This document shows positions 46,251 to 52,021 of a DNA stretch of 64,000 bases, piece after piece (within the stretch, counting starts at the first letter, position 1; each line of letters begins with the position of its first letter). Where the stretch lies: the NCBI RefSeq assembly GCF_988242995.1, contig NZ_OZ547043.1, one strand, 5' to 3'. The position numbers were made by a program, and so were the translations under genes. The notes beneath the pieces are model-generated. The model was not told where the DNA came from and ran no database searches. It saw nothing but the letters and a program-made list of their open reading frames with translations.

Positions 46251-48091
<1,841 letters not shown>

Positions 48092-48113: not shown

Positions 48114-48656
48114 ATGATTATCTATTTACACGGTTTTGACTCTAACAGTCCGGGTAACCACGAGAAAGTCTTACAATTGCAGTTTATTGACCCGGATGTA
48201 CGCTTGATAAGCTACAGTACGCGGCATCCGAAACATGATATGCAGCATCTGCTCAAAGAAGTGGACAAAATGTTGCAACTGAACGTCGACGAGCGTCCGC
48301 TGATTTGCGGCGTTGGTCTGGGCGGATACTGGGCGGAACGGATTGGTTTTCTTTGCGATATCCGCCAGGTGATCTTCAACCCTAATTTGTTCCCTTATGA
48401 GAACATGGAAGGCAAGATTGATCGCCCGGAAGAGTATGCCGATATTGCCACTAAGTGTGTGACCAACTTCCGTGAGAAGAATCGCGATCGTTGCCTGGTG
48501 ATTTTGTCGCGTAATGATGAAGCGCTTAACAGCCAGCGGACATCTGAAGAGCTGCATCATTATTACGAGATTGTCTGGGACGAAGAGCAGACGCACAAAT
48601 TCAAGAATATCTCCCCGCATTTGCAGCGCATTAAAGCGTTCAAAACCCTCGGGTAA
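48114..48656 (+). CDS. ycfP: UPF0227 alpha/beta-hydrolase-like protein YcfP
   Basis: Track ORF 48057..48656 trimmed to ATG 48114 ([18 protein letters not shown]), 180 aa. Confidence 0.9.
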
Positions 48657-48666
48657 ATGCCCTCGT

Positions 48667-48784
<118 letters not shown>

Positions 48785-48905
48785 CGAACGCCCTCCATAC
48801 ACACCTCACTCTATATCACTCTCACAAATTCGCTCAAATAATAAACAACAAACTCTGTTTTTTGATCTCACCCGGTAAAGTCGCCTATCTTTTCAGCAAC
48901 AAAAC

Positions 48906-48919
48906 TTGATTAACATCAA
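48906..48919 (+). promoter_or_regulatory. FNR-type binding site in the ndh promoter region
   Basis: TTGATTAACATCAA is a perfect TTGAT-N4-ATCAA palindrome about 140 nt upstream of the ndh start; ndh is a known FNR-repressed gene. Confidence 0.6.
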
Positions 48920-49055
48920 TTTTGGTATGACCAATGCACCATTCATGTTATTCTCATTAGCGAAGAACATTTTCATTGCTGTAACCTGTTGTTAATTAAG
49001 AGCTATGTTAATAACCATTAATTAACAATTGGTTAATAAATTTAAGGGGGTCACG

Positions 49056-50360
49056 TTGACTACGCCATTGAAAAAAATTGTGATTGTCGGCGGCGGTGCT
49101 GGTGGGCTGGAAATGGCAACACAGCTGGGGCATAAGCTGGGACGCAAGAAAAAAGCCAAAATTACGCTGGTCGATCGTAACCACAGCCACCTGTGGAAAC
49201 CGCTGCTGCACGAAGTAGCGACTGGCTCGCTTGATGAAGGCGTCGATGCGTTGAGCTATCTGGCCCATGCGCGCAATCATGGTTTCCAGTTCCAGCTGGG
49301 TTCCGTCATTGATATTGATCGTGAAGCGAAAACAATCACTATTGCAGAACTGCGCGACGAGAAAGGTGAACTGCTGGTTCCGGAACGTAAAATCGCCTAT
49401 GACACTCTGGTAATGGCGCTGGGTAGCACCTCTAACGATTTCAATACACCAGGTGTCAAAGAGAACTGCATTTTCCTCGATAACCCGCACCAGGCGCGTC
49501 GCTTCCACCAGGAGATGCTGAATCTGTTCCTGAAATACTCCGCCAACCTGGGCGCGAATGGCAAAGTGAACATTGCGATTGTCGGTGGCGGCGCGACGGG
49601 TGTAGAACTCTCCGCTGAATTGCACAACGCGGTCAAGCAACTGCACAGCTACGGCTATAAAGGTCTGACCAACGAAGCCCTGAACGTAACGCTGGTAGAA
49701 GCGGGTGAACGTATTTTGCCTGCATTACCGCCACGTATCTCTGCTGCGGCCCATAATGAGTTAACGAAACTTGGCGTTCGCGTGCTGACGCAAACCATGG
49801 TCACCAGTGCTGATGAAGGCGGCCTGCATACTAAAGATGGCGAATATATTGAGGCTGATCTGATGGTGTGGGCAGCCGGGATCAAAGCGCCAGACTTCCT
49901 GAAAGATATCGGTGGTCTTGAAACCAACCGTATCAACCAGCTGGTGGTGGAACCGACGCTGCAAACCACTCGCGATCCAGACATTTACGCTATTGGCGAT
50001 TGCGCGTCATGCCCGCGTCCGGAAGGGGGCTTTGTTCCGCCGCGCGCTCAGGCTGCACACCAGATGGCAACTTGCGCAATGAACAACATTCTGGCGCAGA
50101 TGAATGGTAAGCCGCTGAAAAATTATCAGTATAAAGATCACGGTTCTCTGGTATCGCTGTCGAACTTCTCCACCGTCGGTAGCCTGATGGGTAACCTGAC
50201 GCGCGGCTCAATGATGATTGAAGGACGAATTGCGCGCTTTGTATACATCTCGCTGTACAGAATGCATCAGATTGCGCTGCATGGTTACTTTAAAACCGGA
50301 TTAATGATGCTGGTGGGGAGTATTAACCGCGTTATCCGTCCACGTTTGAAGTTGCATTAA
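49056..50360 (+). CDS. ndh: NADH:quinone oxidoreductase II (NDH-2)
   Basis: Track ORF 49029..50360; TTG 49056 preceded by SD AAGGGGG gives 434 aa starting [17 protein letters not shown] (FAD Rossmann motif). Confidence 0.93.
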
Positions 50361-50423
50361 TCGGCTTGTACTGGCGGATGGGGCATAAACGCTTCATCCG
50401 CCCTGGACAAATGGTACGAGCGG

Positions 50424-50444
50424 TAGGCCTGATAAGACGCGTTA
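50424..50444. repeat. left half of a REP palindromic unit split by the IS insertion
   Basis: GCCTGATAAGACGCGTTA at 50427-50444 pairs with AGCGTCGCATCAGGC at 51880-51894 to reconstitute a canonical REP. Confidence 0.75.
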
Positions 50445-50452
50445 TGAACTGC

Positions 50453-51355
<903 letters not shown>

Positions 51356-52021
51356 AGGAGATGCTCCTGCATGGCTTTCAGATATGCATTTTCTGCGCGA
51401 AGATAACGCAGCTCATTCTTCATCTCTTCCGGCGTCATGTTTGCCTCGTTTTCATGGGTATCATCAGAACGGGTCATGCTTTTCTCCTTCCTGCGCCTGA
51501 TAAAGGCCTCATTACCAGATTTGCGGTAGCCTTTTATCCAGTTTTTAACCGTGTTGTGGCTGGGAATGTTAAACCGGGCAGCTACCCGGGGTAGAGACTC
51601 AGAATGCCCGAGAGCATAAAGAACCACGCAAAGTTTATCTTCAGGAGAATAGCTACGCTTGTGTCTGCAATCCAGTGCCCGAGGACCGTGAAGAAGAAAA
51701 AGATTAATCCAGTGTGAGAGGCTGGTGTGAGAAAGTTGAAAGAGTTTTGCCGTAGAAATGATGCCTGCATGACCAGCCAGGTAATGATTTACAGCGGCAA
51801 GTTTTACTTCAAATGAATGTTTCATAAACTGCACCTTCAGATGTCAGATTATGTCCAACATTTGGGGTGCAGTTCATTAAGCGTCGCATCAGGCATTCCT
51901 TCAGACTCCTCCGAATCCCTAAGTATTTCCAGCCATTCCCGCGCTTTTCATCTTCTGTCTGATAGCTGCTTTTCTCCTTCGCTTGCATGATTGGCATAAC
52001 AGCAAAGAAGGAGGTGTTCCC

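Follow-up and report, generated by a model that had tools for sequence, protein, structure and literature searches.

The ndh gene encodes the respiratory NADH dehydrogenase II (NADH:quinone oxidoreductase II), and its promoter in E. coli K-12 (Pndh, studied by Green & Guest 1994 and in later work, with an entry in RegulonDB/EcoCyc), which is the same locus as the one described here, is a textbook example of multi-repressor control. Comparative genomics predicted conserved Fnr and ArcA control of ndh across gamma-proteobacterial families (Ravcheev et al. 2007). Among the targets of FNR, Myers et al. (2013) placed in their 'category 2' those that are repressed from sites outside the activating positions, namely fnr (-0.5), can (-11.5), hisL (-11.5), fbaB (-59.5) and yccA (-71.5). 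These have in common with ndh a TTGAT-N4-ATCAA site that is occupied anaerobically and a reduction of both sigma-70 occupancy and expression. Unlike in category 2, the FNR site of ndh does not overlap the core promoter, and repression from -50.5 must work otherwise than by simple occlusion.

The PdhR boxes of pdhR-aceEF-lpd and cyoABCDE share with ndh a GGTnnnACC core within AATTGGTnnnACCAATT and repression that is relieved by pyruvate. The box of pdhR agreed with the consensus at 14/14 positions, that of cyoA at 13/14 and that of ndh at 11/14, and the ndh box, unlike the other two, is contiguous with an FNR site. The multi-direct-repeat ArcA-P sites of Park et al. 2013 (icdA, rutA, lon, sdhC and others) are organised like that of ndh, with an 18-bp box, an 11-bp repeat spacing and, at the distance of one helical turn, a third repeat. 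Where ArcA represses, it mostly does so from sites that overlap the promoter; the site at ndh, in contrast, is found well beyond the start (+46/+77), and it differs from the other Park 2013 sites in having an inverted consensus repeat at +28/+37 as its mirror image, which gives a 54-bp palindrome.

The DNA analysed here is a stretch of 64,000 nucleotides (the window), and the segment under study very probably comprises the E. coli ndh promoter, subject to simultaneous repression by several regulators, with its leader; none of the observations contradicts this. The region between 48657 and 49120 was found, in every case under or adjoining ndh, in 5,413 of the 5,426 complete E. coli genomes. An alignment of the 414 bp that span the ycfP-ndh intergenic region revealed 99% identity to K-12 MG1655, and the named elements were identical base for base. 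All differences lay upstream of 48850 (a few substitutions, located in the REP region or well away from the gene) except for one at 48957, a position (-6, between the -10 hexamer and +1) that is T here and A in K-12 and varies across species. This near-identity allowed the published K-12 coordinates to be transferred directly, the window position being x - 1,117,029 for U00096.3 and x - 1,116,252 for U00096.2; the latter offset was checked with three independent published motifs. The analysis itself shows the identity to K-12, the agreement of coordinates with published ChIP-seq, gSELEX and start-site data, and the phylogenetic footprints. Occupancy and the direction of regulation come from the K-12 literature, the occupancy data not being from this strain, and how each protein represses once it is bound we infer.

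For K-12, the literature already gives the sites of FNR, PdhR and ArcA at ndh as well as its start site and TTG start codon, and the value of this analysis is one of annotation. An earlier note, made from the letters alone, had called the FNR site accurately to the base; added to it here are the elements that it lacked (the PdhR box, the extended -10, the start site and the -94.5 FNR half-site) and the transcribed status of its repeats (Table 1). Conservation was assessed in a footprint set of 88 sequences, made up of the ndh loci of 80 Enterobacteriaceae species and of eight more distant genera, which include Erwinia, Pantoea, Mixta, Winslowiella, Shimwellia and Buttiauxella.

Table 1. Features of the ndh control region and leader in window coordinates
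Feature	Position	Strand	Remarks
Upstream FNR half-site TTGATctcaCCCGG	48862-48875	+	weak; centre 44 bp before that of FNR site I (= -94.5)
FNR site I TTGATTAACATCAA (TTGAT-TAAC-ATCAA)	48906-48919	palindrome	centred at -50.5
PdhR box ttTTGGTatgACCAATg (GntR-type operator)	48920-48936	palindromic	centred at -35; abuts the last A of the FNR site
Extended -10, TG-t-TATTCT, of the sigma-70 promoter Pndh	48946-48954	+	
ndh transcription start site	48963	+	ROSE 1,165,992 (U00096.3), PMC10301672
ndh 5' untranslated leader, 93 nt	48963-49055	+	start site to annotated start codon
54-nt leader palindrome	48982-49035	+	arms 48982-49006 and 49011-49035; 4-nt centre
TGTTAATTAA	48990-48999	+	perfect ArcA repeat consensus; +28 to +37; left arm of the leader palindrome
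ArcA-P site, three direct repeats, 11-bp spacing	49008-49039	-	+46 to +77
Shine-Dalgarno-like AAGGGGG	49044-49050	+	5 nt before TTG; conserved
ndh coding sequence	49056-50360	+	TTG start; 434-codon frame

The order of genes on the ycfP side, thiK-nagZ-ycfP-ndh, is common to K-12 and this strain. Downstream of ndh this strain, unlike K-12, carries an insertion of IS1397 (IS3 family; 50370-51897) between ndh and ycfJ, with ORFs at 50477-51199 and 51304-51834 on the minus strand. This arrangement was matched (at least 80% of the query) in one of the 5,426 complete E. coli genomes, NZ_CP148423.1, which is from chicken; in most complete E. coli genomes ycfJ directly follows ndh. Additionally, REP/BIME palindromic units are clustered at 48660-48790, between the ycfP stop codon and the ndh promoter. 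This cluster contained a sub-threshold match to naRNA4 (RF02564) at 48713-48781 on both strands (56.6 bits, the gathering score being 59.5), and it explains a terminator-like match at 48750-48766.

An in-vitro transcription study by ROSE gave the hexamers of Pndh as TTGGTA-21-TATTCT (PMC10301672). An extended -10 promoter is expected to have a TGn directly before the -10 hexamer and a start 7-9 nt downstream of it; here TG-t precedes TATTCT, with the start at 48963, and the TG and the TATTCT were conserved across species with a variable base between them. The same +1 followed independently from the placing of FNR at -50.5 and of ArcA at +46/+77, so that three data sets agreed on it. The aerobic sigma-70 ChIP peak of Myers et al. 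(2013), at 1165207, corresponds to window position 48955. A generic -35/-10 scan of 48600-49150 found no promoter; its blank result is due to Pndh having no usable -35, and the absence of a promoter was rejected since an extended -10 with a 21-bp 'spacer' fails the canonical rule that such a scan applies. Sigma-70 RNA polymerase uses the extended -10 without a real -35.

Because transcription starts at 48963, the repeats between 48990 and 49045 are transcribed. The earlier note had counted this run of TTAAT/TTAAC repeats as part of the ndh control region; it does hold a mapped ArcA-P site, but it is leader (+28 to +83) and not upstream DNA. The run itself is real. The G+C content of 48990-49049 was 23%, a local minimum that makes it the most A+T-rich stretch of the region, and four of the seven matches to GTTAATWA in the window fell within 48991-49039, about three being expected in the window as a whole. 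The near-palindrome TTAACAATTGGTTAA that had been reported within the run was found at 49023-49037, with 6/7 pairs. Most positions of 48981-49055 were at least 90% identical to the window across the 80 species, whereas +1 to about +18 was poorly conserved.

The TTAAT repeats of the earlier note are the published ArcA-P site. Park et al. 2013 (PMC3798270, supplements) list 1165260-1165291 as TTATTAACCAATTGTTAATTAATGGTTATTAA, annotated +46/+77, and the reverse complement of window positions 49008-49039 was this sequence, base for base. The same source gives an 18-bp ArcA box, ttgttaattaatggttat, on the minus strand with 18.7 bits, scores of 3.6, 12.5 and 8 bits for the three repeats, and, in ChIP-seq, an 11-12 fold enrichment that peaks at 1165227/1165239. 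An ArcA site is expected to have at least two direct repeats with a TGTTA core at a centre-to-centre spacing of 11 bp, and the window carries all three of the published ones. The core of the box, GTTAA-N6-GTTA on the minus strand, occurred once in the 64-kb window, at 49026, and was kept, around a variable N6, in 86/88 sequences. TGTTAATTAA, on the left arm of the palindrome, was nearly invariant in 74 aligned sequences; its orientation is opposite to that of the three published repeats and it is not in the three-repeat list of Park 2013 (PMC3798270). Under reducing, low-oxygen conditions phosphorylated ArcA would be expected to bind the three direct repeats within the leader. The sign of its effect on ndh is disputed, being '+' in one study and '-' in another, and no change was detected under the conditions of Park 2013 themselves (PMC3798270). 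The simplest account of the leader is one at the level of DNA, with ArcA and overlapping Fis and IHF sites.

Another account, which is possible and to our minds somewhat doubtful, takes the TTAAT-rich repeats to be chiefly sites for nucleoid proteins (Fis at about +51, IHF at about +26, HU and possibly H-NS) with ArcA in a minor part. We take the Fis sites at ndh to be centred at -123, -72 and +51, and those of IHF presumably at +26, -17 and -58. The IHF site at +26, which adjoins TGTTAATTAA, is reportedly from work by Green in 1997. The low G+C content of the repeats, the lowest of the region, agrees with such an account, as do IHF-like cores (TAACAA-N4-TTA, one mismatch each) that were found one per palindrome arm, at 48982-48994 on the minus strand and at 49023-49035 on the plus strand. 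Binding of nucleoid proteins to the ndh promoter, which the earlier note had anticipated, is indeed documented for Fis, IHF and HU. Two Fis sites, ndhI and ndhII, go back to Green et al. 1996 and have been measured biophysically; IHF, HU and an unidentified factor Arr are reported at the promoter from Green et al. 1997, and Jackson et al. 2004 again address Fis. A study of in vivo protein occupancy (IPOD-HR) counted six transcription-factor sites that overlap at ndh, those of IHF, PdhR, NsrR and ArcA among them, and assigned much of the occupancy to IHF in both rich and minimal medium.

Against ArcA being minor, the repeats themselves, which had been put down to nucleoid proteins, map at base resolution to ArcA-P, a response regulator. 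GTTAA and GTTA are fixed at an 11-bp spacing with variable bases between them, which is the signature of an ArcA box and is unique in the window, and the enrichment of ArcA in ChIP-seq (PMC3798270) is strong. IHF-like matches at one mismatch, in contrast, were not enriched window-wide, with 66 found against 53 expected, which is at the level of chance, and the two cores were for this reason given no weight as evidence. The two accounts are compatible, overlapping sites being the published picture. Fis, IHF and HU, all reported on the same AT-rich DNA, most likely modulate ndh with growth phase.

The leader palindrome also raised the possibility of a function in the transcript. Its 25-nt arms were 80% complementary, and the palindrome was conserved across Enterobacteriaceae with a degraded form in Erwiniaceae. 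It can be described as a pair of ArcA-box-like elements, inverted with respect to each other, on either side of a variable 4-nt centre. We regard it as unlikely, though worth stating, that the palindrome is an RNA hairpin which tunes the stability of ndh mRNA or its UUG-dependent translation, or else that both arms hold a symmetric higher-order ArcA-P complex. The plus strand also carried GTTAA-N6-GTTA in 35/88 sequences, Enterobacter among them, and there the palindrome reads as two inverted ArcA boxes. In the literature found, neither a hairpin nor a two-box ArcA complex was clearly covered, the description being limited to the three minus-strand repeats. The broader proposal that the repeats act mainly as RNA, by way of a long A/U-rich hairpin with the ArcA, Fis and IHF sites secondary, is improbable to much the same degree, and so is its more specific form, in which the hairpin, whose end is 10 nt short of the Shine-Dalgarno sequence, would govern how stable the mRNA is or how efficiently the weak UUG start is used.

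Folding of the leader gave -23.9 kcal/mol, which was more stable than shuffled sequences (z = -2.4). The 24-pair hairpin was kept in 94.5% of cells (24 pairs x 73 distinct sequences), its freely varying 4-nt loop being the most variable part. However, both arms were near-totally conserved in sequence, beyond what a helix requires; 13/24 pairs were invariant and hence uninformative, and on 4/5 measures covariation could not be told from that of shuffles. Of the 24 pairs in those sequences, one alone showed a compensatory change: at 48996/49021 five species had C-G in place of U-A, and seven had the intermediate U.G. Shimwellia contributed one more in the apical stem, where an A-U pair had become G-C. 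The arm changes of Erwinia, Pantoea and Mixta, on the other hand, were mostly non-compensatory and opened an internal loop of 3-4 nt, and the ArcA-box core remained intact in spite of them.

About 10% of cells were G.U, which count as pairs only in the RNA of the sense strand. The sense strand also folded better than the antisense strand in 71/88 sequences (-19.0 vs -15.8 kcal/mol), although in E. coli itself the antisense strand folded better. The spacer between the arms was 18 nt in 81/88 sequences and 15-17 nt in a few Erwiniaceae (partly a manual reading), and such a change in length would be better tolerated by a loop than by phased protein binding. An Rfam scan of 48600-49200 (E <= 1) gave no match in the leader, its sole match being the REP-derived naRNA4. 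Taken from alignments and folding, the support for an RNA role of the leader is suggestive but weak. If the palindrome did work as RNA, a post-transcriptional layer would be added to a model multi-repressor promoter. We retain the account at the level of DNA, with ArcA on its three repeats.

The TTG start codon of the earlier note was borne out: the TTG at 49056-49058, directly after 49055, is the ndh start annotated by RefSeq, and the RefSeq start maps to 49056 both in K-12 (b1109, 1166085) and in the closest strain, CFSAN018748. Most Enterobacteriaceae and Erwiniaceae species had TTG as the start codon; GTG was used by Raoultella, Yokenella and a few more, and ATG was restricted to Kluyvera and its neighbours. 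This conservation of a non-ATG start suggests selection for a weak initiation codon, and translation of ndh begins at the conserved TTG behind a G-rich Shine-Dalgarno sequence. A longer ORF in the list of open reading frames, starting from the TTG at 49029, was rejected in favour of the annotated TTG, which has a Shine-Dalgarno sequence. A six-codon upstream ORF, from the ATG at 49005 to the TAA at 49025 (ATG TTA ATA ACC ATT AAT TAA), lies at the apex of the palindrome. It was likewise rejected because its ATG is not conserved, being found only in Escherichia, Citrobacter and Salmonella, and it is probably fortuitous.

Upstream of the -10 hexamer, ttTTGGTatgACCAATg was found to be a palindrome of the form AATTGGTnnnACCAATT with the GGTnnnACC core, as in a PdhR operator. 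Its core, TTGGTATGACCAA, was kept in 73/80 species, its offset of 16 bp from the FNR site being constant. Table 1 of Anzai et al. 2020 (PMC7660256) puts the PdhR box of ndh at 1165180, which is window position 48928 and the centre of 48920-48936, and the same paper backs the box with gSELEX and gel-shift data and with the findings that a pdhR mutant is derepressed and that pyruvate induces. Bound over the -35 region, PdhR would occlude polymerase until pyruvate releases it.

The perfect FNR palindrome that the earlier note had placed at 48906-48919 was borne out in sequence and in position. All 10/10 consensus positions agreed, and it was the sole zero-mismatch TTGAT-N4-ATCAA on either strand of the 64 kb. 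Shuffles of the window contained a mean of 0.11 such matches. The statistics of the window alone are therefore no more than mildly significant for the palindrome, and its real support is position and conservation. Both half-sites were kept in 77/80 species while the central N4 was variable, with at least 10 different values; fixed half-sites around a variable centre are the signature expected of recognition by FNR. In Erwiniaceae the site persisted as TTGAT or TTGAC variants. The motif site of Myers et al. 2013, TTGATTAACATCAA at 1165158 (U00096.2) with 15.88 bits, falls on window position 48906, so that comparison with the mapped K-12 site did not refute the palindrome. Their ChIP-seq peaks, at 1165151/1165156, lie 2-7 bp off the motif, the peak at 1165156 being window position 48904. 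The anaerobic repression of ndh by FNR that had been assumed for this palindrome is what Myers et al. 2013 report, ndh being classed as directly FNR-repressed with lower sigma-70 occupancy anaerobically. That the palindrome is a functionless chance match in AT-rich intergenic DNA is next to inconceivable, since, although 11/100 shuffles of the window held at least one perfect match, it is refuted by published ChIP-seq occupancy on exactly this sequence and by the conservation of its half-sites around a variable centre, at a distance to the -10 hexamer and to the PdhR box that was fixed across species.

In the absence of oxygen, dimers of [4Fe-4S]-FNR would bind the palindrome at -50.5, together with the weak half-site at -94.5 in Escherichia, and the promoter would be shut. 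Bound at -50.5, FNR would most likely block productive upstream contacts of RNA polymerase, in line with the Guest/Green work, because this is neither of the activating positions (-41.5 and -61.5). A second FNR site at -94.5, paired with that at -50.5, is presumably required for repression of ndh in the E. coli model. The -94.5/-50.5 pair of FNR sites at ndh was reportedly described by Meng, Green & Guest in 1997. The 44-bp offset of TTGATctcaCCCGG is consistent with this pair. The half-site was present only in four Escherichia sequences (E. coli twice, E. whittamii and E. albertii); in the species alignment there was no conservation of it beyond Escherichia, and no offset near -44 stood out. 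Its restriction to Escherichia suggests that the two-site model of repression may be lineage-specific.

The position of the half-site is taken in other genera by the ycfP terminator. This GC-rich hairpin with a T-run (e.g. cgggctggttttttt) abuts the ndh control region in most non-Escherichia genera at about 75-95 bp from the FNR site, on its upstream side. The conserved control region of these genera measures only about 190 bp and has neither the REP cluster nor the -94.5 half-site. Additionally, Myers 2013 record at 1164183, window position 47931, another FNR ChIP-seq peak, which they label ycfP. The nearest FNR-like sequence to this peak was the weak cTGtcACCGATCAA (7/10 positions) at 47939-47952, which lies upstream of ycfP and inside the 3' end of nagZ.
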